The notes beneath the pieces were generated by a model. The model had not been told where the DNA came from and made no database searches. It was given only the letters and a program-made list of their open reading frames with translations. This document shows, piece by piece, positions 1-15,461 of a DNA stretch of 64,000 nt. How positions within the stretch are numbered: position 1 is the stretch's first letter; the number at the start of each line of letters is the position of its first letter. The DNA lies in assembly GCA_963743705.1 (NCBI GenBank), contig CAVUQS010000013.1, positions 5,415-69,414 on the forward strand, in the 5' to 3' direction. A program made the position numbers and the translations under genes. This DNA comes from Bryobacterales bacterium. GTDB lineage: Bacteria; Acidobacteriota; Terriglobia; Bryobacterales; Bryobacteraceae.

Positions 1-1404
1 GGCGCCACAGCCACCAACAGCGCGTGGGGCGAAGCCTACAGCTACGACGGCTTCGGCAACCTGACGGCGAAGACGCCTACCGTAGGCAGCGCGCCAACTT
101 TTTCCGGCAGTGCGGGCTCAAACGCCCAGAACGGTTCCCTGCCCGGACAATGGGACGTGGAGAACCGGCCGATGACGCAGGGCTCAACGTTCTACGTGTA
201 CGACCCGTGGGGGCGCCGGATCTTTAAGCAGTGGCCCGGTTCTAACGGAGTCAACGAATGCGAGGCATATTTCTACGGGGCGGCGGGGCAGAAGCTGGAA
301 AGCTACAGTTGCGAGTACCAACCTAATACGACGCTCAATTCAACGACGCTGCAGCGGATCAACACGTACTTGGGCGGGAAGATGCTGTCAGAGAAGGGCG
401 TGTTTGTAGCGACGGACCGGCTGGGGAGCGTGCGTGCGACTTCGAACGGTGAAAGCCTCTCGTATTTCCCGTGGGGCGAGGAGCGCGGGACGGGGACGGC
501 GGATGGGCGGACGAAGTTCGCGGGATATTATCGGGATCAGCCGGGCCAGGATTATGCGAATGCGCGGTATTACTCGGCGACGACGGGGAGTTTCTGGAGC
601 CCGGACCCAGGGTCGATTTCGACTGCAAGCGTCGGCAACCCGAGTAGTTGGAACCGATACATGTATGCAGTCGCGGACCCGGTCAATAGTGAGGACCCAA
701 CGGGGCGTATCGTCAGTGCAACGGACTGCATAAGCAATCCTGATTTGTGCTCGAACTGTTTGCCCGGGGCATCGTTCTGGGGGGCCGGTGCTGGCTGTTA
801 TGGCGACGGTGGTGGACCCGTTTGCGGCGGCGATGAGTTCAATCCGAGCCCGGATCCTTTATGTTATGCTCCAGTGCCGTCACCGCCGCCCCCGCCACCA
901 ATTATTTGCACCTTAACGGTCAAATACCGACCGATTGACGACTACCCGCCCGCCTATCACGCCTACCTGTACTTCACATCTAGCGATGGAACAGCAGACA
1001 TAATTGAGGGATACAGGAATCCATCGAACTACCTTAGCGTAAGTATCGGCACCTCAGGCCTCCCGTCCGACAACCCGTCCAAGGACCCGTCGGCCGGTAG
1101 TATCAGTGGTGCATATGTATGCGCTTGGTTCGCGACGCTTGAGTCTGACAGGTCGAACGTAAACGGCGCCGGAATAATCTATAACAAGTACGGTCCAAAC
1201 AGCAATAGCGTGCTCGCCTACATGCTGTCTAGCCTGCCTAGCACCGATTCCTCAGGATCTGCATGGTATTCCCTCCCGGGCACTGGAACGATTCCATTTC
1301 CCATAAGCATCTACATCCCCGGATGGCCGAGTATCAACCTTACGATAAATCTGCCATATGGGTTGGTCGGCGTCAATGTGCCATTGCCAGGAGTCAGTCA
1401 TTGA
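1..1404 (+). CDS. Rhs/YD-repeat polymorphic toxin, 3' end (5' part lies outside the window); conserved core end followed by a unique C-terminal domain CT1 of unknown function
   Basis: Frame 1 is open from nt 1 (GATATNSAWGEAYSYDGFGNLTAK...) and runs into the 157..1404 ORF. It has YD-type motifs (YSYDGFGN, YVYDPWGRR) and the core-end block YYRDQPGQDYANARYYSATTGSFWSPDP...NRYMYAVADPVNSEDPTGR. A Cys/Pro-rich linker and about 200 aa with no motif I recognise follow. The first ~700 nt recur three more times in the window. Confidence 0.9.
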   Translation, partial: GATATNSAWGEAYSYDGFGNLTAKTPTVGSAPTFSGSAGSNAQNGSLPGQWDVENRPMTQGSTFYVYDPWGRRIFKQWPGSNGVNECEAYFYGAAGQKLESYSCEYQPNTTLNSTTLQRINTYLGGKMLSEKGVFVATDRLGSVRATSNGESLSYFPWGEERGTGTADGRTKFAGYYRDQPGQDYANARYYSATTGSFWSPDPGSISTASVGNPSSWNRYMYAVADPVNSEDPTGRIVSATDCISNPDLCSNCLPGASFWGAGAGCYGDGGGPVCGGDEFNPSPDPLCYAPVPSPPPPPPIICTLTVKYRPIDDYPPAYHAYLYFTSSDGTADIIEGYRNPSNYLSVSIGTSGLPSDNPSKDPSAGSISGAYVCAWFATLESDRSNVNGAGIIYNKYGPNSNSVLAYMLSSLPSTDSSGSAWYSLPGTGTIPFPISIYIPGWPSINLTINLPYGLVGVNVPLPGVSH

Positions 1405-2342
1405 CCCGAAGAGACTTGTTCGCAAGGGCGGCGCTGGCCTCCGCATCGGGATATGTTTCGTGCGCGGCGTACCCGCAAAGTGTGCGCCGCTGGCTGGAAA
1501 ACGCCGAAGAACGGGACGGCATTATGATAGTCGGCTTCGGCCTTTGGGCACTTACCCTTCACGGCAAGCCGGCGGGCCGTCTCACCCTGCCGGATTGCTG
1601 CATCGCTCCGCCCTCTATTTCACCGGATGGAAACTGCGTCGTCTGGATACCAAATAGCTCACTTCCATATCCGGTCGGTAAGTCCGAACCGGTATTAAAG
1701 GTTCGAAGATGGGGCTCTGCCATCGAAACAATCCACTACCGAGCCCGCTTCGCGGACTGGGTAGCCGCATCGTCTGGAAGTTCAATAATCAGCGTCGTTG
1801 CAGCAGCCGTCGATCAACCCGGCCGAAAACTGCTGATATTACGGGGTGACACGGGCGAGATCCAGTGCGACCTCACCAGCCTCATTGCTGGATTCCCTAC
1901 GAACGAGATCGAGCAGCTAGACCTATCGGCGTCCGGGACACGCCTGACGCTGGGCACGAGGACAGAGTTCGTCGTCATCGACATACCTTCGCAGTCAGTT
2001 CTCCAGCGACGGGCAGGTAGATTTCCGACTGTTTCGCCCACTAATTCGCGGATCGCATTTGTCGACCGCAGGCAGCTTTTGCTACTCGATCTCGACGGTG
2101 GCGATTCGCATCCGCGAGAGTTGGCGGTGGGTCGCAGCGTATACGGAGTAGGTGCGTGGAGCCCGGACGGAAGAATGCTCTTGGCGGGTATCCAGCCTAC
2201 CGCGTCCCTAAGCGCGCCTCTTGAGTCGCAGCTTGTCGCTATCGACACACGGTCCGCTGAATGGGCAAGTATCGCAAAGCTGCAGGAGGGCGATTATGGA
2301 AACCGTTGCCGATGGATCGCGCGCCGCTTGTTGAACATCTGA
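1401..2342 (+). CDS. Candidate immunity protein for CT1; PD40/TolB-like beta-propeller repeats with a Tat-like signal
   Basis: A TTG at 1401 overlaps the rhs TGA (1402-1404). The resulting N-terminus xTRRDLFARAALASASG looks like a twin-arginine signal. Propeller-blade motifs are present: SPDGNCVVW, SPTNSRIAFVD, AWSPDGRMLLAG. The ORF track gives 1263..2342, but the upstream ATG would overlap rhs by 142 nt. Confidence 0.65.
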   Translation: MTRRDLFARAALASASGYVSCAAYPQSVRRWLENAEERDGIMIVGFGLWALTLHGKPAGRLTLPDCCIAPPSISPDGNCVVWIPNSSLPYPVGKSEPVLKVRRWGSAIETIHYRARFADWVAASSGSSIISVVAAAVDQPGRKLLILRGDTGEIQCDLTSLIAGFPTNEIEQLDLSASGTRLTLGTRTEFVVIDIPSQSVLQRRAGRFPTVSPTNSRIAFVDRRQLLLLDLDGGDSHPRELAVGRSVYGVGAWSPDGRMLLAGIQPTASLSAPLESQLVAIDTRSAEWASIAKLQEGDYGNRCRWIARRLLNI

Positions 2343-2384
2343 CCTTTGCTCAGTAGCTTTCAATAAGAGCAGGATGGCGATGGG

Positions 2385-2597
2385 ATGACCGTAGCGGGTG
2401 CTGCCACCAGTTCGAGTACCGGCGCGTCATTCCCTGCGACGATGACGCCCAATACCAACCTTAGTCTCTCGTCCAACATGACGTATTCGGCGACTTACGC
2501 CTTAACTTCGGTGACCGGAGCGAACGGCGCCACCCAGGGCGTCAGCTACGACGCCTATGCGTTCGCTACTCAGGTATGGCCCACTTCGCTACCGTAA
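2385..2597 (+). pseudogene. Possible short Rhs/YD-repeat fragment
   Basis: This 70-aa ORF lies between cassettes. It carries a YD-like segment (MTYSATYALTSVTGANGATQGVSYDAY), has no credible full-length context and is Ser/Thr-rich. Confidence 0.3.
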
Positions 2598-2667
2598 TTC
2601 GGCCCACCCCTGATGTTCTGAGTTTGCGCCGCCGCTGGAATAGCAACGTTCCGGATGTACAGGCGGA

Positions 2668-2802
2668 GTGGCTTGTGAGGTGATCGTTGAGCTTGGGCGC
2701 GAACTCAGTCTTGTGAAGCGGAACTGGTGAAGACGCGCCGGAACGGAGGATTGTTCAAATCATAGTCGCATTGCGGCGAGACGATGAGTTGACCAACAAC
2801 GC
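2668..2802 (+). repeat. Conserved leader/junction preceding orphan Rhs cassette 2 (paralog at 7552-7673)
   Basis: gtggcttgtgaggtgatcgttgagcttggg ... ggaactgg.gaag.cg.gccggaac.gaggattgttc...agtcgcattg.gg..agacgatga.ctgacc is shared with 7552-7673 apart from an ~11-nt indel. It is not present ahead of copy 3. Confidence 0.75.
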
Positions 2803-4237
2803 GGGGCATAATAATGGCAGGGTGACGCAGACCATCGACGGCGTTCTCGGGGAAACGGTGAACTACCAATACGACTACCTGCATCGGCTGACCGCCGCCA
2901 CAGCCACCAACAACGCCTGGGGGGAGGCCTACTCCTACGACGGCTTCGGAAATCTGACGGCGAAGACGCCTACGGTGGGCAGCGCGCCGACGTTTTCCGG
3001 CAGCGCGGGGTCGAACGCCCAGAACGGTTCGTTGCCCGGCCAATGGGACGTGGAGAACCGGCCGATGACGCAGGGCTCGACGTTTTACGTGTACGACCCC
3101 TGGGGGCGGAGGATCTGGAAACAGTGGACCGGCCAGACGGGCGCGAACGAGTGCGAAGCGTATTTCTACGGGGCGACGGGACAGAAACTGGAGAGCTACA
3201 GTTGCGAGTATACGCCCAACACAATCGATTGGTTTACGACGCTGGAAGGGATCAACACGTATTTCGGTGGGAAGATGCTATCGGAGAAGGGCGTGGCAGT
3301 ATTGACGGACCGGCTGGGGAGCGTACGGGCCAACTCGAACGGAGAGAGCTTCTCGTATTTCCCGTGGGGCGAGGAGCGCGGGACGGGGACGGCGGATGGC
3401 CGGACGAAGTTTGCGGGATATTATCGGGATCAGCCGGGGCAGGATTATGCGATGGCGCGGTATTATTCGGCGACGACGGGGAGTTTTTGGAGCCCGGATC
3501 CAGGCGGGATGAACAACGCGAATGCAGCGAATCCAACGACATGGAACCGCTACGATTATGTAATGGGTGATCCGATAAACCGGACCGATGTAAATGGGCT
3601 TTGTTCGGATCAGGACAACCCTCCCTGCTTCAGCACGAACAGCGCTCCGCCGCCACCGGGGCCCACGCCTGGCTCACCCGTTCAGGGGACAGGTAATGAC
3701 TCTCCGCCTGTGGATTTGGGGGGCGGCGATCCAGGTGGTAGCGGGTCGAGCACTCCCAGCAACGCCGATCTCCTAAGTGCATCGATTGGCCGTGTCACAG
3801 CAGATCTCCTAAAGCCCGAGTGCGCGAAGGACTTCAAAAATGTTTCTAAAACTGTTAATGAGCTTTCAAATATTAGCTTTCATGACTATGGGGAGGCGAC
3901 GGTTAGCACCAATAAGGCTGGGAAAAATCGTACAAAAGGCGGGCAGTGGGGTCAATACAACCCCTTCACACACAGCATTAACCTGAATTCTAATTCCTCA
4001 GTAAACTGGGCAGATCCAAGTCATAGCATGGATCTACTTAACGGAGTTCAGACCCCCTCTGACTTCATTGCTGGGGAGCTTAGCTTCTTGGGTTTGCCGG
4101 CAACCACACCAATGACGGCGAGCCAATTCATTGACTTAGTAGTCCTTCATGAACTCGCGCATTATGATGGCAGAGTTGGAAATCCCGATAAGGGCGCTAA
4201 TGAGATAAAGCTTTGGAACGACTGCGTAAAACAATGA
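2771..4237 (+). CDS. Orphan Rhs core-end + CT2: HExxH zinc-metallopeptidase-like toxin domain
   Basis: It starts at a TTG and has no N-terminal Rhs body. GHNNGRVTQTIDG...YYRDQPGQDYAMARYY...GDPINRTDVNGL is >90% aa-identical to cassette 4. The unique CT ends ...VVLHELAHYDGRVGNPDKGANEIKLWNDCVKQ, with HELAH at 4148-4162. Confidence 0.8.
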   Translation: MRRDDELTNNAGHNNGRVTQTIDGVLGETVNYQYDYLHRLTAATATNNAWGEAYSYDGFGNLTAKTPTVGSAPTFSGSAGSNAQNGSLPGQWDVENRPMTQGSTFYVYDPWGRRIWKQWTGQTGANECEAYFYGATGQKLESYSCEYTPNTIDWFTTLEGINTYFGGKMLSEKGVAVLTDRLGSVRANSNGESFSYFPWGEERGTGTADGRTKFAGYYRDQPGQDYAMARYYSATTGSFWSPDPGGMNNANAANPTTWNRYDYVMGDPINRTDVNGLCSDQDNPPCFSTNSAPPPPGPTPGSPVQGTGNDSPPVDLGGGDPGGSGSSTPSNADLLSASIGRVTADLLKPECAKDFKNVSKTVNELSNISFHDYGEATVSTNKAGKNRTKGGQWGQYNPFTHSINLNSNSSVNWADPSHSMDLLNGVQTPSDFIAGELSFLGLPATTPMTASQFIDLVVLHELAHYDGRVGNPDKGANEIKLWNDCVKQ

Positions 4238-4839
4238 CCATGACGAAAGCATTAGTCCTCATAATGTTCGTGACCGCTCCAGCTATCGCGTCAACTGATT
4301 ACTGCTCGCTTATCGTGCAGGTGATAAGCCCAAATGGTAAGAGACCGACGGCTGAAGTCAGCGTCGTGGATGAAAGCGGTCGAACAACCAGCCAAATCGA
4401 AGAGGGTAAGGACGCAAGGTTCTGTGATCTCGGCCTTCGGCCTGTTACTGTCGAAGTCGGCGGTCGTGACACGTGCAACCAGGTAACTGTGAGCGGGGTA
4501 CCTCTTGCCTGGAACGAGACATATCATCTTAAGGTTACCTATGATCCGATGCCGTGCCTGAAGGATTCTCCACACATTTTGCCGGCATATTGTACATATC
4601 TTTTTCGCGTCAAGAATGAGAATGGTACACCGATCGCTCGGGCCACGCTGCTGGTTTTGCCAAGCAACCTATCGCTTAAGACCGATAGCGCCGGTCGAGC
4701 AAGTTTCGACCCGAGCCTTGGGCCGTTCAGCGTAACCATTAATTTTCCAGGGTACAGTTCGCGCTCCTTCGAAGGAACATGCACACCGGCAAAGTCTCGG
4801 GAACCGCAGGAGGAAGTAATAAAACTCTTGACTAAGTGA
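4234..4839 (+). CDS. Candidate immunity protein for CT2; exported, with CarboxypepD_reg-like beta-sandwich motifs
   Basis: The ATG at 4234 overlaps the toxin stop (ATGA). The signal peptide is MTMTKALVLIMFVTAPAIAST. Segments such as VISPNGKRPTAEVSVVDESG and VKNENGTPIARATLLVLP...TDSAGRASF are present, and the region is AT-richer than the Rhs core. The ORF track start is 4213. Confidence 0.7.
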   Translation: MTMTKALVLIMFVTAPAIASTDYCSLIVQVISPNGKRPTAEVSVVDESGRTTSQIEEGKDARFCDLGLRPVTVEVGGRDTCNQVTVSGVPLAWNETYHLKVTYDPMPCLKDSPHILPAYCTYLFRVKNENGTPIARATLLVLPSNLSLKTDSAGRASFDPSLGPFSVTINFPGYSSRSFEGTCTPAKSREPQEEVIKLLTK

Positions 4840-4872
4840 TGCGGCCGGCTGTTCAGTCATGTCGCGCGGGGC

Positions 4873-6797
4873 GTGGACTGCGTTTGCGAAACGCCGGTGG
4901 CCAGCGACTATACTCCACACCTGGGGGCGGTTGAGGGCGTGTTATTTCAGGCCCAGACGCCGGTCGGCCTCGACGTCAATTTCGCTTACGAATACAGCTA
5001 TAACCAGGCAGGGCGCGTCACCGGAAACCGGATGTTGACGACTCCGTCGGGGGAGACGCTGTTCGATCTCCAGGCGCAGTATGGCTGGGACAACCAGGTG
5101 CGCATGACCTCGATGACCTACCCGAGCGGCACGGCGATGACGTATGCATTCGATCCCATGGGCCGGCCGAGCACCATGACGCAGAACCAATCGTTCACCG
5201 CCGCCGCGGCCACTTACGGCTCGGCCGGCCAACTCCTGACGCTGGGCGGCGAAACGTTCACCTACAACAGCATGCTGCAACTCACGCGCGTGACCGGTGG
5301 GATGCCGGGGTCCAGCATCGACATGCAATACATCTACAGTACGGGCCATAATAATGGCAGGGTGACGCAGACCATCGACGGCGTTCTCGGGGAAACGGTG
5401 AATTACCAATACGACTACCTGCATCGCCTGACCGCCGCCACAGCCACCAACAACGCCTGGGGGGAAGCGTACTCCTACGACGGCTTCGGAAATCTGACGG
5501 CGAAGACGCCTACGGTGGGCAGCGCGCCGACGTTTTCCGGCAGTGCGGGCTCGAATGCCCAGAACGGCGCCCTCGGCCGGACAATGGGACGTGGAGAACC
5601 GGCCGATGACGCAGGGCTCGACGTTTTACGTGTACGACCCGTGGGGCCGGAGGATCTGGAAGCAGTGGACCGGCTAGACGGGCGTGAACGAGTGCGAAGC
5701 ATATTTCTACGGGGCGGCGGGGCAGAAGCTGGAGAGCTACAGTTGCGAGTACACGCCGAACACAATCGATTGGTTTACGACGCTGCAAGGGATCAACACG
5801 TATTTCGGTGGGAAGATGCTGTCGGAGAAGGGCGTGGCAGTGTTGACGGACCGGCTGGGGAGCGTACGGGCGAACTCAAACGGAGAGAGCTTCTCGTATT
5901 TCCCGTGGGGCGAGGAGCGTGGGACGGGGACGGCGGATGGACGGACGAAGTTCGCGGGATATTACCGGGATGCAGCCGGGGCAGGATTATGCGAATGCGC
6001 GGTATTACAGCGCAACGACCGGGAGTTTTTGGAGTCCGGATCCTGGCGGGATGAGGACGGCGGATTCGACGAGCCCAACAACGTGGAACCGCTATGCGTA
6101 CGTCGCTAGCGATCCAGTGAACCTTATCGATCCGGGCGGCAGGTTTCAATGCAACCCGGAGGTCTGCGGTCAACAACAGCAAGAGGACCCATGTGGAGCC
6201 GATCCTACCTTGCTGGGCTGTGATCCGACCGCGTATGCGCCAGGTCGCACCAATTATTTTGGGTCAACGGATCCGGGGGGCGGCGGTGGCGGGACTATTC
6301 TCGATTCTTTCGCTGGTTTTTGGCCGGCCTTTAGCCTCGCTATGTCAGCGCTTGGAACCCCAGACTGCGCGAGTCAATTTGGACTTGCGGCGAACTCAAT
6401 GAATCCCTCAACGCTACTGGCGGATGCCGTAACGGGTATCCTTACCGGAACTACGACGGAGCTAACCTTCGGAACTGAAAATATCGCTGGTACGGGTGCA
6501 AACACGAGCGGGCTCGGAATTACGGTCGCGACCAATGACACTTGGGCGTATTCAAATGCTAACGGCCAGCAGGTTGAATCAACGCGGGCAAGTATCAATA
6601 TTAATATCGCTAGCTGGAACAGCGAAACGACCATTCAACGAGCACAAACTCTAATCCATGAGCTTGGACATGTCTTCGATATGCTGCTCGGTGCCGGAGG
6701 ATCGGTGTTTGTGTACGATGCAAAACCGGATTGGACGCCTGACATGGACGCGGAGGCTACTAATGCAAAATTCGTTCAGAACTGTATTCATAACTAG
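4873..6797 (+). pseudogene. Decayed orphan Rhs cassette 3 (two frameshifts plus one premature stop) with CT3, a second HExxH toxin domain
   Basis: It is split over three ORFs: 4873..6054, 5684..6109 and 5919..6797. There is a +1 nt change relative to intact copies near 5571-5585. TAG at 5675-5677 replaces CAG (WTGQTG). An extra g near 5972 disrupts YYRD-QPGQDY. This copy retains more upstream YD repeats than cassettes 2 and 4. CT3 carries LIHELGHVF (6657-6671). Confidence 0.85.
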
Positions 6798-7308
6798 CGG
6801 CGCCAAGATCCTTACGTGCCTGTTCGGGGTCTGGTCGATGACCGCGTTGTCGACTGAGGGTAATACCGCGACGGTTTTTCGCAAAGCGACGGTAGCAGAG
6901 ATTTTGGCAAGTCCGGGCAAGTTCGACCAGAAGCTGGTTGAGCTCCGCGGTCGAATAGTAGTCGGTCAGGAAATCAGCATGTTTCAGGATGGATCAACAT
7001 GCGCAAAGACTCGAATGTGTGCATTGTGGGTTGAACTCGACCGCTGCATGATCGCTGGGAGTGAGACGGAAAATAGCTGCGCCGTTTACATCGACAATCT
7101 TGTTCGCCTCAATGGAGGCCCACCCCTCTCCCAGCGAATTGAGCTTGACGATGTGGCGGTCCGCGGCGTAGTAATGACGTCGCGCAAGGACTTGCGCTAC
7201 GACAGCTCTGTGCCGAAACAATATAGGGTCGGACAATTCGGGCATCTATCGGCCTACCCAGGCCAAGTGAACGTTCAGCAGATCCAACTGCCACCTTCCG
7301 CAAAGTAA
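6763..7308 (+). CDS. Candidate immunity protein for CT3; signal/anchor-bearing
   Basis: The ORF 6658..7308 overlaps the CT3 end. The ATG at 6763 gives MQNSFRTVFITSGAKILTCLFGVWSMTALS, a hydrophobic N-terminus. An alternative ATG lies at 6838. I see no recognisable family. Confidence 0.55.
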   Translation: MQNSFRTVFITSGAKILTCLFGVWSMTALSTEGNTATVFRKATVAEILASPGKFDQKLVELRGRIVVGQEISMFQDGSTCAKTRMCALWVELDRCMIAGSETENSCAVYIDNLVRLNGGPPLSQRIELDDVAVRGVVMTSRKDLRYDSSVPKQYRVGQFGHLSAYPGQVNVQQIQLPPSAK

Positions 7309-7551
7309 CGACCCGGGTCTGCGAAGCGAAGCGCCGTCACTGCCCATTGGGCCCGCCCGAGGATATCTTGATCTGCGCCTTTTAGTGTTTGACTTTGATC
7401 TTTGCGCCATCCGGCAGGATATCCACCTGATAATGGACGGCAATGTACCCTTCAAAGCTTACGGAAACGGTGACCACATGAGCCGGCTCCTTGCCCGTAG
7501 GAGCTACAACGGTGTTGTCAAGAGGGAGAATTTCGGGATTGATTCCCTGCA

Positions 7552-7673
7552 GTGGCTTGTGAGGTGATCGTTGAGCTTGGGTCTTGTGGATCGCAACTGG
7601 CGAAGGCGTGCCGGAACTGAGGATTGTTCCGATCAGTCGCATTGTGGCAAGACGATGAACTGACCAGCAACAC
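7552..7673 (+). repeat. Conserved leader/junction preceding orphan Rhs cassette 4 (paralog of 2668-2802)
   Basis: See 2668-2802; the same 30-nt start, gtggcttgtgaggtgatcgttgagcttggg, and the same downstream blocks. Confidence 0.75.
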
Positions 7674-9120
7674 GGGGCATAATAATGGCGGGGTGACGCA
7701 GACGATCGATGGCGTGCTAGGGGAAACGGTGACCTATCAGTACGACCACCTCCATCGGTTGACCGCCGCTACGGCCACCAACAGCGCTTGGGGCGAGGCC
7801 TACAGCTACGACGGTTTCGGCAATCTGACGGCGAAGACGCCAACGGTAGGCAGCGCGCCAACTTTCGCCGGCAGCACGGGTTCGAATGTTCAGAACGGTT
7901 ATTTGCCGGGGCAGTGGGACGTGGAGAACCGGCCGATGACGCAGGGCTCAACGTTTTATGTGTACGACCCGTGGGGGCGGAGGATCTGGAAGCAGTGGAC
8001 GGGCCAGACGGGCGCGAACGAATGCGAGGCCTATTTCTACGGGGCGACGGGGCAGAAGCTGGAGAGCTACAGTTGCGAGTACACGCCGAACACGACCGAC
8101 CTGTTCACGACGCTCGAAGGGATCAACACTTACTTCGGGGGGAAGATGCTGTCGGAGAAGGGCGTGTTTGTGGCGACGGACCGATTGGGGAGCGTACGCG
8201 GGAATTCAAGCGGAGAGAGTTTCTCGTATTTTCCGTGGGGCGAGGAACGCGGAGCGGGGACGGCGGATGGGCGGACGAAGTTTGCGGGCTATTACCGGGA
8301 TCAGCCGGGGCAGGATTATGCGATGGCGCGGTATTACTCGGCGACTACGGGGAGTTTTTGGTCGCCGGATCCGGGTGGGATGAAAAACGCGAATCCACTG
8401 AGCCCGTTGACCTGGAACCGCTATGGGTATGTAATGGGTGATCCGATAAATCGGACCGATGTGCGTGGGTTGTGCTCCGATCAAGACGATCCGCCTTGCT
8501 ATAGTACAACGGCGACAGGCGAAGAGCCGCCTCCGCCGCCTCCGGTCGGCAATCCTTGGGATCCTAACGATCCGAATGCCGGACCTGGCGCGAACAATGC
8601 GAGTGATCCGTCATGCAGCAGCCTACTCAGTGCGGCAATGACGACGTTTCTCACCAATAGCAAATCGCCGTTGTTGACCCAGGATCCGAATTTCGTGTCG
8701 CAGATTGTGACCGAGGCGGCTGCGGTAGGGGTCGACCCGCGGCTATTCGTTGCGGAGACGGAGGAGTCGGGGCTCGGGACCTCGCATGTCGCTCAGACCA
8801 TGAATAACCCATTCGGCATCAAGCGTCACAATAAAAATGTAAGCTTTTCTAGCGTTGGTGACGCGATAGTTTCGGAGGGCAGCACGTTGAACCAATTTGT
8901 AAATATATGGAACGAAACCGTTTCGCAGATGTATAGCGGTCTCCCTGGCGTGACGGATGCCAAAGGGTGGAACTGGGTTCGCCCCCCCGCATACTGTCAG
9001 GGGAGCGGTTGCCAGGCGTTTGGGAGCGCCGTTGCTGGAGCGCTGAAGGCGATGGGTGGGGACCCCAATAGTCTAAAATACCCGTTGGGCCAGGTTAGCG
9101 GGGTTGCATGCAAAGACTAG
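7624..9120 (+). CDS. Orphan Rhs core-end + CT4: glucosaminidase/FlgJ-like peptidoglycan hydrolase toxin domain
   Basis: It has a TTG start and the core GHNNGGVTQTIDG...GDPINRTDVRGL. The CT contains AETEESGLGTSHVAQTMNNPFGIK (about 8750-8825). This matches the E-S-G-x-G ... NN-x-FGIK signature of the mannosyl-glycoprotein endo-beta-N-acetylglucosaminidase family. Confidence 0.8.
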   Translation: MFRSVALWQDDELTSNTGHNNGGVTQTIDGVLGETVTYQYDHLHRLTAATATNSAWGEAYSYDGFGNLTAKTPTVGSAPTFAGSTGSNVQNGYLPGQWDVENRPMTQGSTFYVYDPWGRRIWKQWTGQTGANECEAYFYGATGQKLESYSCEYTPNTTDLFTTLEGINTYFGGKMLSEKGVFVATDRLGSVRGNSSGESFSYFPWGEERGAGTADGRTKFAGYYRDQPGQDYAMARYYSATTGSFWSPDPGGMKNANPLSPLTWNRYGYVMGDPINRTDVRGLCSDQDDPPCYSTTATGEEPPPPPPVGNPWDPNDPNAGPGANNASDPSCSSLLSAAMTTFLTNSKSPLLTQDPNFVSQIVTEAAAVGVDPRLFVAETEESGLGTSHVAQTMNNPFGIKRHNKNVSFSSVGDAIVSEGSTLNQFVNIWNETVSQMYSGLPGVTDAKGWNWVRPPAYCQGSGCQAFGSAVAGALKAMGGDPNSLKYPLGQVSGVACKD

Positions 9121-9659
9121 TGATTGTGCTAGTGACTGCGATAGTCGGTCTGTATGGTCAGCACGCACCTCCTGATCGCGATAGGATCGTGAATCAGCGG
9201 TACGCGTTTTCTGTGATGCGCCCGCGTGGATGGTTCGTTTTCGAGGGCGGAGATCTCCCGTCGTTCTATAACTTTCGAGCGGAGGAGTCGCTTCCTCAAG
9301 GCGAACTTCCTCGCGGGGGTGCAGAGATCAGGATGATGGCCAAGTCCATTGCAGCCGATCAGCCCCAAGATAGCCTCAATGTTTGGGTGACATCGTTGGT
9401 TACCCGTGAGCGCGGGATCAACCTCGGCGAGCGCACCAACTCTACCTCTGCAAAGGGCCTGCCGCCCGGCGTTGTTACAGTTGAATTTGACCAACCTCCA
9501 CTCGGGCAGCCGGGTGACTTCCTCCACGGCGTTCTGGTGGCTTGGCATGGTCAGAGGGGTTTTTTATGTGCATTGCTGACATTTATTAAGGGCGATCCGA
9601 AGGCTGACGACCACCGGCGCAGCCTCGTCGATCTGATACGTAGTTTCCGGTCGCTTTGA
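9108..9659 (+). CDS. Candidate immunity protein for CT4; exported
   Basis: The ATG overlaps the toxin 3' end by 13 nt. The signal peptide is MQRLVIVLVTAIVGLYGQ. It is AT-richer than its surroundings, and I recognise no family. Confidence 0.65.
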   Translation: MQRLVIVLVTAIVGLYGQHAPPDRDRIVNQRYAFSVMRPRGWFVFEGGDLPSFYNFRAEESLPQGELPRGGAEIRMMAKSIAADQPQDSLNVWVTSLVTRERGINLGERTNSTSAKGLPPGVVTVEFDQPPLGQPGDFLHGVLVAWHGQRGFLCALLTFIKGDPKADDHRRSLVDLIRSFRSL

Positions 9660-9772
9660 TAGCGGGCAAAACTTTTCATGAAAACGCCCCTATACTCACT
9701 TGTCTCGGGACCCACGGGGTTGAACACCGCCCTCGCAGGCGCGGAAGCTGCATATTGCGCATACAAGACCAA

Positions 9773-10309
9773 ATGAGCGAGCAGCGACTCATTAGAAATC
9801 TTGTCGGAGCAACATTCCACGTTGCAAGCGCGCTCTGGTTAGGGCTCGCCTTGGCTGGATGGATACTAGTTTCTCGACCGGAGACCGGAAAGCACTCTCA
9901 TTTGATTGGGTGGGGTGTCCTATTGGCTGCGATCGTGATAATGCTAGCTACAATGAGCCTGTGGATTAGGCTTCTTAGCGCGCTATTCGGAGGCTGCATC
10001 CTGATGGGAGTTATCGCAGTTTTTACAGGGCGAGTACCCAATGGAGCACCATTTTCTCGTCCCATTGCTGCTATCCTCACGGCTCTACTTCTTTGCTGTG
10101 GCATGATCTCGCGGAGTATGGCTAAGCGCCCTCTAACGATTTTAGACCGCGTAATGCTTGTAGCGTTCTTGGCTGTATTTGCAGGGGGGCTTGTCGAGGG
10201 AACCCCGACATCAAGTGTGGTTGGGCTTAGTGTCGGACTCTGTTGTCTTCTTGTCACGCGGATTCACAGCCGGCGCAACAACTCGCGCCAGGATATTACT
10301 GATACGTGA
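9773..10309 (+). CDS. Multi-pass membrane protein, unknown function (possible extra immunity gene at the array end)
   Basis: Starting from ATG 9773 (MSEQRLIRNL...) there are 5-6 hydrophobic helices (ALWLGLALAGWILV, GWGVLLAAIVIMLA, LFGGCILMGVIAVF, IAAILTALLLCCGMI, VMLVAFLAVFAGGLV, VVGLSVGLCCLLV). The ORF track start is 9656. Confidence 0.55.
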   Translation: MSEQRLIRNLVGATFHVASALWLGLALAGWILVSRPETGKHSHLIGWGVLLAAIVIMLATMSLWIRLLSALFGGCILMGVIAVFTGRVPNGAPFSRPIAAILTALLLCCGMISRSMAKRPLTILDRVMLVAFLAVFAGGLVEGTPTSSVVGLSVGLCCLLVTRIHSRRNNSRQDITDT

Positions 10310-10979
10310 TGGGGCAGGATTACGCGAATGCACGGAAGCCTTTCCGCTCTCCGTATTAGAACCGGCCTTTTTCCGGAAGTGCGAGCTCGAACGCCCCGAG
10401 ACAGCACGTGATGAACGAAGCGAAGCTGAGAGAGTGGCTCGGCTCGCTTCTGGGTGGTGTCCAGGGTATGTCTCCTCCCTCCGTTCGGTCCAAGCGGCCT
10501 CATCTCAGCCACTCCCGTCGGTTATCGTCGACGGGGTACACTATCGTCTTTCGCTATTAGGTCTACAGACAAAGATCTCCGTCGAGGTCACCAGCCTCGG
10601 AACTCTCGATCAAGGCATGGAAGCTGACCCGGTCGCCCGTACGATGCGCCGGATACGTCAGGAGGCTATACGTGAGTTCGATACTCCGGCATGGCCCACT
10701 TCGATATTTACATTTGGCCCACCTGAGAATTGATATTTCGCCTCAGTTCGCCGACTTTCGGTAAGTCCTCTCGGTATTCCCCAACGCTGGGAATGCGTCG
10801 CCACACTGCAATTTTGCCACTGGACCTGGCGGCCATTCACCTGAGTTCCAGGGAAAAGCGATTTTTTTGTAACGGCTTTCCGTTCAATAGTTCAACTGTG
10901 GAAATCGCTCGGAGGCTGCGGCCAAATGCGCGGTGAAGGCTGGCGCACCTGCTATGAAGGGAATGGGCGGTGATGGGGG

Positions 10980-11753
10980 TTGGAGTTCTTCAAGGAATGG
11001 AAGAGGGTTCAGAGAAACCCGACGACGGAGGTTCTTCGAGTCAGCGAGTTTGCGCGGCGCAGATTGGGATTCGAGGCGGATGACCGGCAGGCGGCGGCGC
11101 TGAATTCGCAGGCGAAGCGCGGGATTCTGAATTGTACGCGGCAGTGGGGGAAATCGACCGTGCTGGCGGTGAAGGCGGTGCATCGGGCGTGGACGGTGGC
11201 GGGGAGCCTGGTGCTGGTGGCGAGTCCGTCGGAGCGGCAGAGCGCGGAGTTCTTGCGGAAGGCCGCGGGGTTCTTGATGAGGCTGGGCGTGCCTCGCCGG
11301 GGCGACGGCGATAATGCGAGCTCGTTGGCGCTGCCGAACGGGAGCCGGATCGTGGGGCTGCCGGGGACCGAGGGAACGGTGCGCGGGTTCTCGGCGGTCT
11401 CGATGCTGCTGATCGATGAAGCGGCGCGCGTGCAGGATGCGACTTATAAGTCGCTGCGTCCGATGCTGGCGGTGGGTAAGGGCGACTTATGGCTGATGAG
11501 TACGCCGAGGGGACAGCGCGGGTTTTTTTATGAGTCTTGGATTAATGGCGGGGAGACTTGGGAGCGGCATTCGGTTCCGGCGACGGAGTGTCCGCGGATT
11601 GAGGCGGGGTTTTTGGAGGAGGAGCGGGGCGAGTTGGGGAGTACGTGGTTTGCGCAGGAGTATTTGTGTGAGTTCGTGGATGGCGGCGGTGGGTGGTTCG
11701 GGCGGAGGTTGGTGGAAGGCGCGTTAAGCGGGGATGAGCCGCTGTGGTTGTGA
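10980..11753 (+). CDS. Phage terminase large subunit, N-terminal ATPase part (gene interrupted at its 3' end by a repeat element)
   Basis: Walker A-like CTRQWGKST and Walker B-like MLLIDEAA are present, along with the MSTPRGQRGFFY motif region. The last ~10 codons and the stop are encoded by the tandem repeat that starts at about 11722. Confidence 0.7.
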   Translation: MEFFKEWKRVQRNPTTEVLRVSEFARRRLGFEADDRQAAALNSQAKRGILNCTRQWGKSTVLAVKAVHRAWTVAGSLVLVASPSERQSAEFLRKAAGFLMRLGVPRRGDGDNASSLALPNGSRIVGLPGTEGTVRGFSAVSMLLIDEAARVQDATYKSLRPMLAVGKGDLWLMSTPRGQRGFFYESWINGGETWERHSVPATECPRIEAGFLEEERGELGSTWFAQEYLCEFVDGGGGWFGRRLVEGALSGDEPLWL

Positions 11754-11990
11754 GGGGGGAAGAACTTTGACGCAGAGGCGCGGAGGCGCAGAGATATGGA
11801 GAGCAACGCGAGGATGCGGGGATGAGGGGCGTGAGCGGAGATGAGCGGTTGTAGTTTGGGAGTGGTGAGGGTGAAAGGCTTTGACGCAGAGACGCGGAGG
11901 CGCAGAGATACGGAGAGCAACGCGAGGATGCGGGGATGAGGGGCGGGCGGAGGCTTGGAGGTTGTCAGGGGGTACGTGAATCATCGACGG
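11722..11990 (+). repeat. Tandem repeat, ~115-bp unit x about 2.3 (motif ctttgacgcagaggcgcggaggcgcagaga.a.ggagagcaacgcgaggatgcggggatgagggg)
   Basis: Units start near 11722 (partial), 11758 and 11873 and are near-identical by eye. A diverged copy of the same family lies at 38581-38650. Confidence 0.8.
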
Positions 11991-12002
11991 CGCGGGGGCG
12001 AG

Positions 12003-12040
12003 CTAAAGCTCGCTGCAGGCTGAAGGCCTGCCCTACAGCG
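12003..12040. repeat. REP-like hairpin element (gcaggc-tgaag-gcctgc core)
   Basis: gctaaagctcgctgcaggctgaaggcctgccctacagcg. A close paralog, gcgaaagcccgctgcaggctgaagcctgccccactgt, lies at 61521-61556. A variant, cgcaggccaggaggcctacgcc, lies at 38717-38740. Confidence 0.7.
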
Positions 12041-12050
12041 AAAGAGGATT

Positions 12051-12684
12051 ATGTTTTTTGTGGGGGTGGATTTGGGGCAACGGCGAGACCATACGGCGGT
12101 GGCGGTGGTGGAGCGAATAGCGGGAGAGTCGCGGACGTTCGATCCGGTGGCGTGGAGGACTCGCGCGGAGGCTTTGCCGGATGAGTGGGTGGTGCGGTAC
12201 CTGGAGAGGATGCCGTTGGGGACGCCTTATACGGAGGTGACGGCGCGGATTGTGGCGCTGGCGCGGCATGAGCAATTGCGGGGCAAATGCCAACTGGTGG
12301 TGGACGCGACGGGCGTCGGGCGCGCCGGTGGTGGACATGCTGCGGGCGGCGCGGCCGGGATGCGCGATCGCGCCGGTGTGGATTACGGGCGGGCAGAAGG
12401 AACGATTCGATGGCGCGCTGTGGCATGTGCCGAAGCTGGATCTGCTGGCGCGGCTGCAGGCGCTGCTGGAAACGAAACGGCTGCGGATCGCGCGGAGTCT
12501 GCGGGACGCGGGGACGCTGGTGCGGGAGCTGGTGAGCATGCGATCGGAACGCCAGCGGAGCGGACATTTGAAAATCGGGGCGGAAGGCGCGGGTGAGCAC
12601 GATGACCTGGCGCTGGCTGTGGCCCTCGCCGTATGGCCGGGACGGAAGGCGCGCGGGGGGGAACAGGGCGCGCGGCTACTCTAA
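12051..12684 (+). pseudogene. Phage terminase large subunit, C-terminal RNaseH-like nuclease part, frameshifted
   Basis: 12051..12596 starts FFVGVDLGQRRDHTAVAVVE ... LVVDATGVG. The sense frame then continues in 12250..12684 (PVVDMLRAARPG...ITGGQKERFDGALWHVPKLDLL...GEHDDLALAVALAVW). The frame switch is near 12318-12330. Confidence 0.7.
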
Positions 12685-12957
12685 CGTGAGGTTCATATAA
12701 AATGGAAAATGCGAACTGAGATTTGGGTGTGCGGTTGAGGAATTGGTCACCATAGGGACGAGGATCGCACCTATTCCGCAACCAATGTGCCATCCCCGGA
12801 ACCCAAGGCACGCTCTCAGGTAATAGGCCTTGGGCGGACGCGCTGTCGGCGTTTCCCGGAATAACGCGGTCAACCGGTTTGGCCGTTAACCGGAGCGTTA
12901 TGAGTCGAATCCTATCCGAGGAGCCAATCATTTCCACCTCGCATTTGTGCTGTTCTC

Positions 12958-13011
12958 GGTTGGCTCAGCATTCGCGTAATTTGCGCCAAAATGGCAAGAT
13001 TTGCGCGTTCT
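12958..13011. repeat. Intergenic repeat with an internal a(t/a)ttgcgc(c/g) direct repeat (paralog at 23010-23064)
   Basis: ggttggctcagcattcgcgtaatttgcgccaaaatggcaagatttgcgcgttct compared with ggttggccaagcattcgtgtaacttgcgccgaaatagccggaatttgcgccttct; about 80% identical by eye. Confidence 0.6.
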
Positions 13012-13269
13012 GGGTTTGGCTGGAGAGAAAGTCAAAACCTGCAGGAGGCGTCAAACTTGGTCGAGTACGGGGCAGTTTCTCATATTCTCCGAACTGGCCG
13101 GCTCTTTTGGTTAACGGGCGAGTTTGGCGCTTCTTTGCTTCATCGCCGGCGTGTTTGCGGCGAGAGCCGCCAAGACAATGGGGAAATCCTGATCTCCATT
13201 CCTCCTGCTGGTACTTGCCGTTAGTTGGCTGCTCTTGTCCAAGGCGCGTAAGGCGCTCAATCTGACGGG

Positions 13270-13701
13270 ATGAAGGCCTTCATTGTAGTATTCCTCGTTT
13301 GCTGCGCCGGCTGCGCTTGACGGCCGGCCGCGTGCAGGCCGCCCACGCCTGTGATCAGTACGGCATCCGGCCTAGCGATGCCGATGGCGAAGCTCATGAT
13401 CTTTGGCGGGGAAGATCACAAGGTGTATCTGCGCTGTTTAAACTGCTCCAGCATCGCGCCTGATTCGGTGCATAACAGCATCGGGCCGCACGGCAGCAAC
13501 ATCGCACATTCTGAACAGTATTAGCCCGTTCGGTTCTTCGATCAGCCCCTACAGCCCCTGCAACACCATCGGGATGTCGCCACCCTTGGTAGCGGATTCA
13601 GCAGGCCGCTTCTACGGGTACCTCACGCTCAACACGATCAAGACTCAACGCTACGAAAACGCTGCCGTGAATGGATGGCTGTGCGGCATTTGCGAGAAGT
13701 A
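13270..13701 (+). pseudogene. Small lipoprotein-type secreted protein, disrupted by an in-frame TGA and one frameshift
   Basis: ATG 13270 gives MKAFIVVFLVCCAGCA, followed by TGA at 13318. The same frame continues ...MAKLMIFGGEDHKVYLRCLNCSSIAPDSVHNSIGPHGSNIAHSEQY and stops at about 13522. A shifted frame continues SPFGSSISPYSPCNTIGMSPPLVADSAGRFYGYLTLNTIKTQRYENAAVNGWLCGICEK up to the stop at 13701. Confidence 0.45.
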
Positions 13702-14099
13702 GGCTGGACCTTCCGCGATGAAACGAGGATCATGGCGATGAGCGCATTCATCGTGGGTTTCTAGGTCGGCCGGAGCGCTCCCGTTCGTGAGCCATCGAAT
13801 CCGCGCATTCTCCGCGTTGGCGAAGATTTTGCCGCCGAATTTCGGACGACAAGGTTGTCTTCGCGGTGAGATCGGCGGCGGAAGCCGCCGGACCCCAGCT
13901 TTGCATGAATTTCAAAGACAACATGAACGTGCGCGCCTTCGACTCAGGCGGATCGCACGCTGGAATGTACGTTACACCACGCTAAGTGGAATAATTCCTG
14001 CCTCGACAGGATTGGAACGCCGTATCCAGAGTTCCAAACTGGAACCCTGATAGGGAAGTTACTCAGCCACTGCCTTCGGGCGAGTTGCGGGAGGTCAAT

Positions 14100-14924
14100 A
14101 TGGGGATTGGCGCTAGACGAACCGCCATCGTAGGTTTGTCTGTCATGTTTGTAGCCTTGCTTCCGGCGTGGGCCGATGCGGGCGCCGGCATGGCCGCGTT
14201 CAAGAGAGGCGATTACGCGATCGCTTATCGAGAGTGGAGAGCGGCTGCCGAAAAAGGTGAACCTGAAGCGGAGTACGACCTGGGCGTGCTTTATGCGAAA
14301 GGCTTGGGAGTGGGCCGCGACCTGGATGCCGCAAAACAGTGGTATGAGGCGGCAGCTTTAAAGGGGAATGCTCAAGCCGAGTTCAGCCTCGGTCAGATGT
14401 ACGCCCAGGGATGGGGCATTCCACCGGATGACGCCGCGGCCGTGCATTGGATGGAATTGGCTCGCAGTAGGAACTCCTCCAATGCCGACGATCAGGACTT
14501 GGCATGGTTTCCCCTGGACGACTACGGCATGCGGCCGGATTATTCGAAGGCGGTATATTGGTATCGCCTTTCCGCCGATCAGGGACACGCCGAAGCTCAA
14601 TACGAGTTGGCCAGTCTATACTCTCAAGGCAAGGGCGTGCCCCGTGACCAGACCGAGGCGTTCCAACTACTGAAAGCGGCCGCTAACCAGGGCTTCACCA
14701 AGGCTGAGACGTCCTTAGGGCGGCGCTATGAGTTGGGGCGCGGAGTCGAAAAAAATGAGTCGCAGGCTTTCTTTTGGTACACGGTAGCGGCACGGCGCGG
14801 CGATAAGATGGCGCAGAAATTGCGGATCGAGCTAGCCGGCCATATGCCCGCCGACCAATTGAACAAGGCGGAAGTTGCTGCCGTATCGTGGCATCCTATC
14901 ACTCCCGCTTCCGTAAGGCAATGA
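14100..14924 (+). CDS. Sel1-like (SLR) tetratricopeptide repeat protein, exported
   Basis: The signal is MGIGARRTAIVGLSVMFVALLPAWA. Sel1 repeats are present: AEYDLGVLYAKGLGVGRDLDAAKQWYEAAALKGNAQAEFSLGQMYAQGWG..., YELASLYSQGKGVPRDQTEAFQLLKAAANQG. The ORF track start is 14085 (TTG). Confidence 0.85.
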   Translation: MGIGARRTAIVGLSVMFVALLPAWADAGAGMAAFKRGDYAIAYREWRAAAEKGEPEAEYDLGVLYAKGLGVGRDLDAAKQWYEAAALKGNAQAEFSLGQMYAQGWGIPPDDAAAVHWMELARSRNSSNADDQDLAWFPLDDYGMRPDYSKAVYWYRLSADQGHAEAQYELASLYSQGKGVPRDQTEAFQLLKAAANQGFTKAETSLGRRYELGRGVEKNESQAFFWYTVAARRGDKMAQKLRIELAGHMPADQLNKAEVAAVSWHPITPASVRQ

Positions 14925-15342
14925 ATGAGAGGATCTCCCGAGGACGGCGAGAGTCCGGTGGATGTGTTGCGAAAGAGAATGCGGGCCATCGCCGAAGCGA
15001 AAGGACTGCCCTACGAAGATCCGCCCAGAGACAACTTACAGATCCTCGCGGCGGACCACTGACCCTTGTGGAGGTCCTTCGCGGACGATAACAGCGCCAA
15101 CCGGGAACGGCGCTTGCCATCGTGCAAAACATTGCCAGACGAATTCGGAAGCTGGAGACAGCGTTTAAGCCGCCGGCGGAAACGGAGCAGTCTCGGGCTC
15201 TGAGAGCCCGGCTCGATACGGCGTACCTTGCCGGCGGTAGAGATCGCTACCGATATTTACTCTTAACGCACCTTGTTTCGTTGTTCCGTAGCGCGCCATC
15301 TCGACGGAGCAAGGAGCCGCGAGCCGTCGGCCTTCAGGCAGT

Positions 15343-15447
15343 AGTTTCGTCGCGGGCCTACTGGTCGCCGTCTCGATGGCCGCGAGCGCGATTCCGGCTT
15401 GGCGCGCTGCGCGGGTGGACCCGGTACGGGCGCTGAGGGAAGAGTGA
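15343..15447 (+). pseudogene. 3' remnant of an FtsX/MacB-type (ADOP) ABC permease gene
   Basis: Frame 1 reads FVAGLLVAVSMAASAIPAWRAARVDPVRALREE followed by a stop. This is the canonical last TM helix plus tail of FtsX-family permeases, and no upstream body is present. Confidence 0.6.
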
Positions 15448-15461
15448 GAGCTGATCGGTAA

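Follow-up and report, generated by a model that had tools for sequence, protein, structure and literature searches.

A 64-kb stretch of DNA from a Bryobacterales bacterium (Acidobacteriota; assembly GCA_963743705.1, contig CAVUQS010000013.1, positions 5,415 to 69,414), referred to here as the window, raises the question of why one chromosome carries several successive rhs gene ends, each joined to a different sequence. Within the first 10.3 kb of the window, four leftover 3' pieces of rhs lie in tandem on the + strand in the same orientation, and each is followed by a different C-terminal domain (CT) and a small open reading frame (ORF). This region (window 1-10.3 kb) is very probably a layered array of displaced ('orphan') Rhs core-CT/immunity modules in the chromosome, in the sense of the orphan rhs-CT model, which is taken here from Poole et al. 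(2011; PMC3150448) and from papers cited there. A preceding sequence-only reading of the same DNA had proposed one rhs 3' end followed by three orphan cassettes of the Rhs/CdiA type.

Tandem organization of the rhs fragments

The repeat search and pairwise blastn agree with the sequence-only reading on the presence of four + strand copies of a block of ~0.75 kb. The block, 0.6-0.8 kb in our searches, occurs as four direct copies sharing 85-92% nucleotide identity (E=0), and the similarity at the nucleotide level on which the earlier interpretation depended is thereby evident. The copies are in register at positions 3-611, 2896-3504, 5436-6046, and 7767-8375 (+ strand; 85-86% identity over ~610 nucleotides (nt), E=0). 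Longer alignments were obtained for cassettes 2 and 3 (92% identity over 753 nt, 2802-3552 versus 5342-6094, E=0) and for cassettes 2 and 4 (85% identity over 978 nt, 2667-3644 versus 7551-8514, E=0). The RHS-associated core domain TIGR03696 was identified by NCBIfam models in all four copies, with 43.6-52.5 bits against a cut-off of 32.5 bits, and the YD repeat TIGR01643 was above its cut-off in every cassette. RHS_repeat PF05593 scored 30.4-56.6 bits in cassettes 2, 3, and 4 (cut-off 22) and 21.1 bits, just under the cut-off, in cassette 1. The ends previously assigned to the blocks (708, 3601, 6143, and 8472) match exactly the last codon of the core motif WNRY.Y...DP(V/I)N..D(P/V).G(L/R), of which the variants at these four positions are DPTGR, DVNGL, DPGGR, and DVRGL, respectively. 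The final 20 codons of the cassette 1 core read WNRYMYAVADPVNSEDPTGR.

Each module consists of the last ~230-420 codons of rhs (final YD repeats and core), a linker, a different putative toxin domain, and an overlapping downstream ORF. The four CT segments showed no mutual similarity in sequence comparisons, as expected from the earlier description of a different C-terminal domain after each core. The GC content is 0.60-0.62 in the cores, 0.52-0.57 in the CTs, and 0.52-0.59 in the downstream ORFs, with a value of 0.594 in the remaining window; the CT and immunity segments are therefore AT-richer than the core, as had been noted. The core copies differ mainly at synonymous sites (dS 0.57-0.76, dN/dS 0.10-0.18), which indicates that the cores are old and have diverged under purifying selection and are not recent duplicates. 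This pattern fits serial acquisition and displacement rather than recent local duplication.

Of the double label 'Rhs/CdiA-type', the Rhs part is supported by TIGR03696 and the YD repeats, and the CdiA part is not: Pfam and NCBIfam scans detected only Rhs features, and no two-partner secretion (TPS) domain, filamentous haemagglutinin (FHA) repeat, or VENN pre-toxin motif in any cassette. The CdiA-type reading was dropped because these defining domains were not found. A Tc-toxin reading was also dropped, as neither defining domains nor adjacent TcA/TcB genes were found.

The cassette 1 core (1-708, +) runs off the window start and contains TIGR03696 (5e-14) and an RHS/YD repeat, with 85-86% nucleotide identity to the other cores. 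In the 183.5-kb source contig, the gene call for this cassette (P0009) is 491 amino acids (aa) long and starts ~24 codons before the window, at a Met that replaces the Val of ..RVTQTID... A contiguous full-length rhs would not be expected to be called in this way, so that cassette 1 looks like a fourth orphan. It is probably an orphan like the other three, and its previous designation as the 3' end of an rhs gene is probably wrong. The truncated core of cassette 2 (2771-3601, +; TIGR03696 2.5e-13) belongs to an ORF from TTG 2771, and the gene call P0001, 100% identical to cassette 2, starts at 2789. That of cassette 4 (7624-8472, +; TIGR03696 7.6e-14) corresponds to gene call P0002. The ORFs of these two cassettes start within 30 codons of the onset of homology, and both cores are preceded on the + strand by a non-core leader, located at 2667-2802 (the start of the blastn match between the two cassettes, 2667/7551; repeat family D8) and at 7551-7672. 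The two leaders are homologous with ~120 nt in common, and the N-terminal peptide of protein P0003 resembles them.

Intact toxin ORFs are present in cassettes 1, 2, and 4, and cassette 3 is decayed. The sequence-only reading had not noted that cassette 3 is not a single reading frame; three-frame translation and alignment identified it as a pseudogene, disrupted by a TAG codon and by two frameshifts of +1. Its Rhs body and core (4873-6143, +; RHS_repeat 3e-15) are longer than those of the other cassettes, retaining an extra 467 nt of Rhs body (4873-5339) that continues, in the sister strain L001, into at least 570 aa of Rhs repeats. Compared with the other copies, one nucleotide has been inserted (+1) at ~5577 and another at ~5972, and a CAG codon has become TAG at 5675-5677. 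As a result, three different frames are used by the Rhs body (that of 4873), the core, and CT3 (that of 5919-6797). The first frameshift is also present in the independently assembled L001, indicating that the ~5577 insertion is not a local sequencing error.

Each CT opens with a Cys/Pro/Gly-rich low-complexity linker (709-870, 3602-3720, 6144-6260, and 8473-8560), which connects the Rhs cleavage motif to the catalytic domain. Examples are CSDQDNPPCFST and PPPPPP runs, and the linkers of cassettes 2 and 4 are alike.

Downstream ORFs and predicted site of action

The start/stop overlaps described earlier are all present in the sequence (TTGA at 1401, ATGA at 4234, 35 nt at 6763/6797, and 13 nt at 9108/9120). 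The downstream ORFs, designated Imm1-Imm4, had also been proposed to be conserved partners of the CTs, and this was upheld for Imm1 (in contigs L003 and L004), Imm2 (L005-L008), and Imm4 (L010); Imm3 was found as a partner only in the near-identical L001. Judged from this synteny in independent contigs, the downstream ORFs are conserved partners of CT1, CT2, and CT4, i.e. in three of the four cassettes.

Hydropathy analysis revealed signal-like N-termini on all four partner proteins, and each CT contains 4-8 cysteines. Signal-bearing partners together with Cys-rich CTs suggest that the toxins act outside the cytoplasm, and the four payloads are thus predicted to be envelope-attacking enzymes that would act in the periplasm.

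CT1 and its propeller-type partner

CT1 (709-1404, +) consists of a linker and a toxin domain of ~135 aa at nt ~868-1404. The sequence-only reading could not place it in a named toxin family, and this holds at the sequence level: Pfam, NCBIfam, and PDB sequence comparisons gave no match, and a word-index homology search was also empty. An exhaustive phmmer search over 1.84 billion representatives defined a CT1 family of 94 clusters, in which the ~135-residue domain is followed, with few exceptions, by no more than a few tens of residues (typically ~15) before the protein C-terminus. The N-terminal partners of the homologues are mostly Rhs repeats, and also include a signal peptide with an FG-GAP-like propeller (P0177) and other N-termini; such C-terminal placement behind varied N-termini is a signature of a shuffled toxin domain. 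A profile re-search returned just four short-contig proteins. In a 34-sequence alignment, the invariant columns are C17, H34, E50-G51, C88, G112, N114-S115, and Y121. A His encoded at nt 958-960, a Glu at 1006-1008, and a Cys at 1120-1122 are proposed to be catalytic, and a GPNS motif is located at 1192-1203.

With the family alignment, AlphaFold (AF2) yielded a confident model of CT1 (pLDDT 93.9, pTM 0.85), compared with a pLDDT of 37 from the single sequence. The model contains five strands followed by a long helix (residues 85-104), with C88 at the N-terminus of this helix and H34 on an early beta-strand. Foldseek placed human CLN5, the Vibrio type VI secretion system (T6SS) effector TseH, and Aichivirus 2A first, with weak scores (E 0.03-0.2, TM 0.37-0.43), and Ac81-like proteins and kobuvirus 2A ranked on top in the viral library. 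We take all of these to be members of, or to resemble, the circularly permuted NlpC/P60 group. The placement of CLN5, LRAT-like enzymes, and TseH with permuted NlpC/P60 enzymes is supported by published work (PMC9012467, PMC3142127, PMC12994826). Sequence models of the described permuted clades did not match any of the 34 family members in Pfam, where a single match to DUF3750 (E 0.036) was obtained; the LRAT, DUF6695, DUF4105, and YiiX models gave no match in the family, and a PDB profile search was also empty. In its model, CT1 resembles Tox-Act1/TseH (DUF6695; PMC12994826) and LRAT/CLN5 (PMC9012467, PMC3142127) in that an invariant early-strand His precedes an invariant Cys at a helix N-terminus, and this order, as in permuted NlpC/P60 enzymes, supports the fold assignment. 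Taken together, the model offers a reasoned lead, short of demonstrated membership, that CT1 may be a hydrolase with a Cys-His-Glu active site and the circularly permuted NlpC/P60 (LRAT/TseH/Tox-Act1-like) fold. Tox-Act1 and TseH are periplasm-acting phospholipases (PMC12994826), and the exported partner of CT1 fits periplasmic action as well. By analogy, the substrate of CT1 is most likely an envelope phospholipid or another acyl ester or amide, our preferred guess being a phospholipase activity. CT1 differs from these toxins in several respects: no sequence-level match to their models was obtained, the His-Cys spacing is far shorter in CT1 (54 residues), CT1 is fused to Rhs whereas Tox-Act1 and TseH stand alone as T6SS cargo, and its putative immunity protein is a beta-propeller of the twin-arginine translocation (Tat) type, in contrast to the membrane protein of the permuted NlpC/P60 toxins compared.

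Imm1 (1401-2342, +) encodes a 313-aa PD40-type beta-propeller (Pfam PD40, 9e-6) from a TTG codon that shares nucleotides with the stop codon of the toxin (TTGA). Its N-terminus carries a Tat-like MTRRDLF signal, which is weakly hydrophobic, and an invariant Cys21. Homologues with 33-38% identity are located directly after CT1 homologues in L003 and L004, two unrelated short contigs, and these homologues share the 4-nt overlap with the toxin, the MTRR start, and the same invariant Cys21. The Imm1 protein is identical in L011, a Logan contig from run ERR11561019. Contig L010 contains an Imm1-like fragment at 14879-15645 (39% identity, 170 aa) inside an Rhs array in which a CT1 domain was not detected; this fragment is an orphan immunity remnant. 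The Rhs array of L010 is flanked by insertion sequence (IS) elements.

CT2, CT3, and CT4 with their partners

CT2 (3602-4237, +) and CT3 (6144-6797, +; out of frame with its core) are both zincin-like segments with an HExxH motif, HELAH at 4148-4162 in CT2 and HELGH at 6657-6671 in CT3, and with a Cys pair (3821-3823 and 4223-4225; 6366-6368 and 6783-6785). In both family alignments, the invariant features are HExxH, an N-terminal helix-Cys motif, and a C-terminal Cys, and the two families align significantly with each other only over the N-terminal motif (hhalign 96.8%). Reprolysin_5 was detected at 4e-5 in two of ten CT2 relatives, both of which have the extended HExxHxxGxxH motif; CT2 itself had no significant match, and its profile gave weak matches to fragilysin and ADAM17. 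All five CT3-family members examined had weak matches to Peptidase_M91 (NleD/HopH1-type), the best of which (E 0.0026) was below the cut-off. From these sequence features, CT2 and CT3 are predicted to be zinc metallopeptidase-like.

CT4 (8473-9120, +) is GH73 N-acetylglucosaminidase-like and contains ETEESGLG at 8755-8778 and NNPFGIK at 8803-8823, which together are presumably the GH73 signature. PF01832 matched CT4 with an E-value of 1.3e-5 and 26.3 bits, under the 30.2-bit cut-off, and is the domain precomputed for the same protein, P0002. CT4 is accordingly predicted, on its sequence, to be a peptidoglycan N-acetylglucosaminidase. PDB sequence searches with CT2, CT3, and CT4 yielded nothing significant.

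Imm2 (4234-4839, +; 201 aa) has a signal peptide and a CarboxypepD_reg domain (PF13620, 1.7e-9), and its start overlaps the toxin stop (ATGA). In L005, the ORF behind P0018 (a CT2 homologue) is 53% identical to Imm2, and this placement is conserved in L005-L008. A CarboxypepD_reg protein also follows another HExxH Rhs fragment in L009; BLAST detected no similarity between it and Imm2, the common Pfam domain being the sole link. The Imm3 candidate (6763-7308, +) encodes 181 aa from ATG 6763 with a signal-like N-terminus and overlaps CT3 by 35 nt (6763-6797); an alternative start at 6838 is the one called in L001, in which the protein is 99% identical. Behind other toxins of the CT3 family lie signal-bearing ORFs of 155-183 aa, which have no detectable similarity to Imm3. 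L009 contains at 12333-13521 a mini-cassette in which only the last ~60 Rhs core codons (QRYYDRGTGRF...DPSGL) remain, ahead of an HExxH domain of the CT3 family and a signal-bearing ORF of 155 aa; it illustrates the extent that truncation can reach.

Imm4 (9108-9659, +; 183 aa) has a strongly hydrophobic N-terminal signal and overlaps its toxin by 13 nt (9108-9120). It is 100% identical in L001 and L002. In L010, a contig from a metagenome-assembled genome (MAG) in NCBI, CT4 is 73.5% identical, and an uncalled ORF directly after it (L010 11179-11736) is 46% identical to Imm4. The next ORF in the window (9656-10309, +) starts with a TTG overlapping the Imm4 stop and encodes a membrane protein with six hydrophobic 19-residue segments in hydropathy analysis. 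It has no match in Pfam, NCBIfam, or PHROG, is conserved in L001 and L002, and is absent beside the CT4/Imm4 pair of L010. One possibility is that this ORF is an orphan immunity gene of the membrane type.

Related loci and proposed origin of the array

The sister strain L001 is 96.75% identical to the window across 4871-10681, with 41 indels in 5.8 kb, and this independent assembly reproduces the order CT3-Imm3-core4-CT4-Imm4-membrane ORF; its CT4 aligns only as three frame-shifted pieces. Independent assemblies also matched window 576-2588 (L011) and 8355-10200 (L002) at 99.95-100% identity. Comparable or larger Rhs arrays were found in relatives, namely L005 (at least seven cassettes), L009, and L010. 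No relative was recovered when genome contigs were scanned with the core protein of cassette 2. In L005, a 91.5-kb contig (1-21968; JGI 3300056587 Ga0562382_00769), a 1,546-aa Rhs gene and a HEAT-repeat ORF head the larger array. Behind them lie six or more Rhs fragments, 474-1,140 aa in length, and most of these have an ORF of 119-280 aa next to them with a 4-nt overlap.

If the array follows the pattern of the rhs loci of enterobacteria, incoming core-CT-immunity units would arrive by horizontal transfer and recombine via the conserved core, pushing older units downstream, where the displaced units would persist as a reservoir. Homologous recombination between the direct repeats of 85-92% identity could then rejoin such units to an rhs body and swap payloads, while retained immunity genes would keep protecting the cell. 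The immunity genes would be translationally coupled to the toxins, and the partner proteins would be exported.

Several observations weigh against a displaced array of this kind or against the functions assigned to its parts. In Pfam scans, which covered 30 large ORFs between 10.9 and 64 kb, the window contains no full-length rhs, PAAR, VgrG, EagR, T6SS, or other secretion gene, and each of the 120 best core homologues is at most 854 aa long. The fold matches of CT1 are weak, the assignment of CT2 and CT3 is based on motifs and sub-threshold profile matches, and no Imm3 homologue was found beside other CT3-family toxins, its partnership being supported only in L001. In addition, the Logan contig from ERR11561019 differs from window 576-2588 by one base in a C-run at ~1277 (L011 701; CCC versus CC), an indel that would frameshift the last ~40 CT1 codons and truncate CT1. 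The frame in the window keeps the conserved C-terminal motif of the CT1 family, a second contig from this run is identical to the window elsewhere, and the difference reflects either strain heterogeneity or an assembly error.

This discrepancy also bears on whether the array is genuine. The window is derived from a metagenome assembly, and the copies are similar enough to confuse assemblers, so that a mis-assembled or chimeric join of reads from the rhs loci of several strains might be considered. This is extremely unlikely, because the copies are 8-15% different and have unique flanks, L001 reproduces the cassette 3-4 order, L011 and L002 match almost perfectly, and the same architecture is present in unrelated contigs. 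It is also conceivable that each fragment of ~480-500 aa is expressed from its own start and forms with its partner an autonomous toxin/antitoxin-like or secreted unit. An orphan Rhs module of Salmonella has been reported to act as a type II toxin-antitoxin (TA) system (PMC7043789), cassettes 2 and 4 possess a common conserved leader and candidate start codons of their own, and many database relatives are 400-850 aa long. However, most of the YD shell is missing from the fragments, which also have no N-terminal plug or delivery domain, the cassette 2 leader contains an in-frame TAG where P0003 reads through, and promoter-like enrichment was not found. Moreover, the partners carry export signals and the fragments carry none, which makes intracellular TA pairing unlikely. 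We therefore consider stand-alone expression of the fragments quite improbable.

Selection may instead have acted on the immunity genes, with the array representing an immunity island or graveyard in which the toxin fragments are dead and the immunity genes are kept against neighbours firing the matching toxins, as in Vibrio cholerae and Bacteroidales. Immunity arrays generated by displacement have been described (PMC5361080), and the downstream ORF of cassette 3 is intact behind three disabling lesions in the toxin gene. Imm4 has remained unchanged in L001 next to a fragmented CT4, the L010 remnant lies in an array with no detectable CT1, and the window contains neither a delivery domain nor a main rhs. 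Nevertheless, cassettes 1, 2, and 4 have long intact ORFs, the conserved C-terminal motif of the CT1 family is preserved, core dN/dS is low, and the L001 frameshifts may be assembly errors because of the many indels between L001 and the window. Such an island, which we regard as somewhat unlikely, would complement the reservoir model and is compatible with an array of displaced orphan modules, the reading that we prefer.

Comparison with known systems

Like the orphan rhs-CT/rhsI modules of Escherichia coli, Salmonella, and Dickeya (PMC3150448), those of the window are 5'-truncated rhs fragments in which the core is kept up to a DPxGL-type motif, each core is joined to an unrelated CT with an immunity gene directly after it, all units have one orientation, and the GC content of the CT and immunity segments is lower. 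They differ in that at least four cassettes plus relics are present with no main rhs, PAAR, or VgrG found in the window; that the partners look exported and the payloads envelope-directed, whereas enterobacterial payloads are usually nucleases or other cytoplasmic toxins; and that the host is an uncultured acidobacterial lineage. The Rhs arrays of bee-gut Snodgrassella and Gilliamella (PMC5727410, PMC8125069) also form long tandem core-CT/immunity series with pseudogenised members, but adjoin T6SS/VgrG loci, none of which was found in Pfam scans of the 64-kb window. CdiA-CT/CdiI orphan arrays follow the same logic of displaced toxin-immunity cassettes, whereas the TPS, FHA, and VENN features are missing here. 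With Tox-Glucosaminidase, Tox-HopH1/NleD (Peptidase_M91), and Tox-MPTase (Zhang et al. 2012, PMC3482391), our segments share the GH73 motif (CT4) and HExxH (CT2 and CT3) in a position C-terminal to RHS repeats; CT2 and CT3 differ in falling under all Pfam thresholds and in having the extra N-terminal helix-Cys motif and C-terminal Cys. Tox-Glucosaminidase has been listed for Firmicutes only (PMC3482391).

With these results, the known range of the Rhs orphan-cassette mechanism comes to include an uncultured acidobacterial lineage of soil or sediment type, in which interbacterial weaponry has been little studied, and three testable toxin-immunity pairs become available. The most interesting of these is CT1/Imm1: the toxin domain is compact, lies outside Pfam, is modelled with confidence, and probably has an active site of the permuted papain-like kind, and its propeller-type partner is new. 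The CT1 domain is new at the sequence level, and the orphan array itself is a well-known way of storing spare weapons. Surveys indicate that Rhs proteins usually carry cytoplasm-acting toxins (PMC12994826), so that uniformly envelope-directed payloads on an Rhs scaffold would be less usual and are a hint worth recording. A bolder conjecture, which we ourselves hold to be unlikely, is that this lineage uses Rhs only for envelope-acting, disulfide-rich enzymes with periplasmic immunity, and that CT1/Imm1 constitutes a sixth permuted NlpC/P60 lipid/envelope-toxin clade with a new Tat-exported propeller immunity family. Envelope-only payloads would imply a delivery route that halts in the target periplasm or a route other than the T6SS. 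The general picture of polymorphic toxin systems is unchanged by these data, and their value is for cataloguers of polymorphic toxins.

Relics and surroundings of the array

Further traces of Rhs sequences are present between and after the cassettes. A relic of an Rhs repeat body is located between cassettes 1 and 2 (2369-2557, +); it reads NMTYSATYALTSVTGANGATQGVSYDAY and shows 73.5% nucleotide identity to L001 1108-1293. A 45-nt core relic (GYY..GQDYANAR; 10291-10335, +; repeat family D6) is found at the end of the array, and in the collinear region of L001 a scrap of this type precedes a CT3-family fragment and a signal-bearing ORF (L001 7929-8912). From this sequence context, the scrap at 10291-10335 appears to mark a lost fifth cassette. 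A 51-nt sequence occurs exactly twice, at 2558-2608 and 10673-10723 (78% identical; chance expectation for its 19-nt core, 0.06). The former copy is directly after the Rhs-body relic, and the latter is located where the collinearity between the window and L001 stops (10681); the sequence may be a recombination or junction scar.

Neither tRNA genes nor Rfam elements were found across the window, which thus contains no obvious integration-site marker of these kinds, and a scan for promoters and terminators remained below shuffle expectation. Pfam scans of the 30 large ORFs between 10.9 and 64 kb showed that the remaining 54 kb encodes ordinary chromosomal functions, including a CarboxypepD_reg-TonB-type outer-membrane barrel, ASPIC/UnbV FG-GAP proteins, peptidases, and a glutaminase. 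Both this gene neighbourhood and a homologue with a Bryobacteraceae name (P0118) indicate Acidobacteriota. A lone decayed gene for a phage terminase large subunit lies at 10980-12700; its N-terminal domain is encoded at 10980-11753 (phrog_7579, 8e-52) and the remainder over two frames at 12051-12684 (phrog_27743), and two 77-nt direct repeats at 11755-11945 interrupt the gene. The G-over-C skew of the terminase region is very strong (+0.3 to +0.56). A Sel1-repeat protein with five repeats (3e-42) is encoded at 14085-14924, 4 kb downstream of the array.

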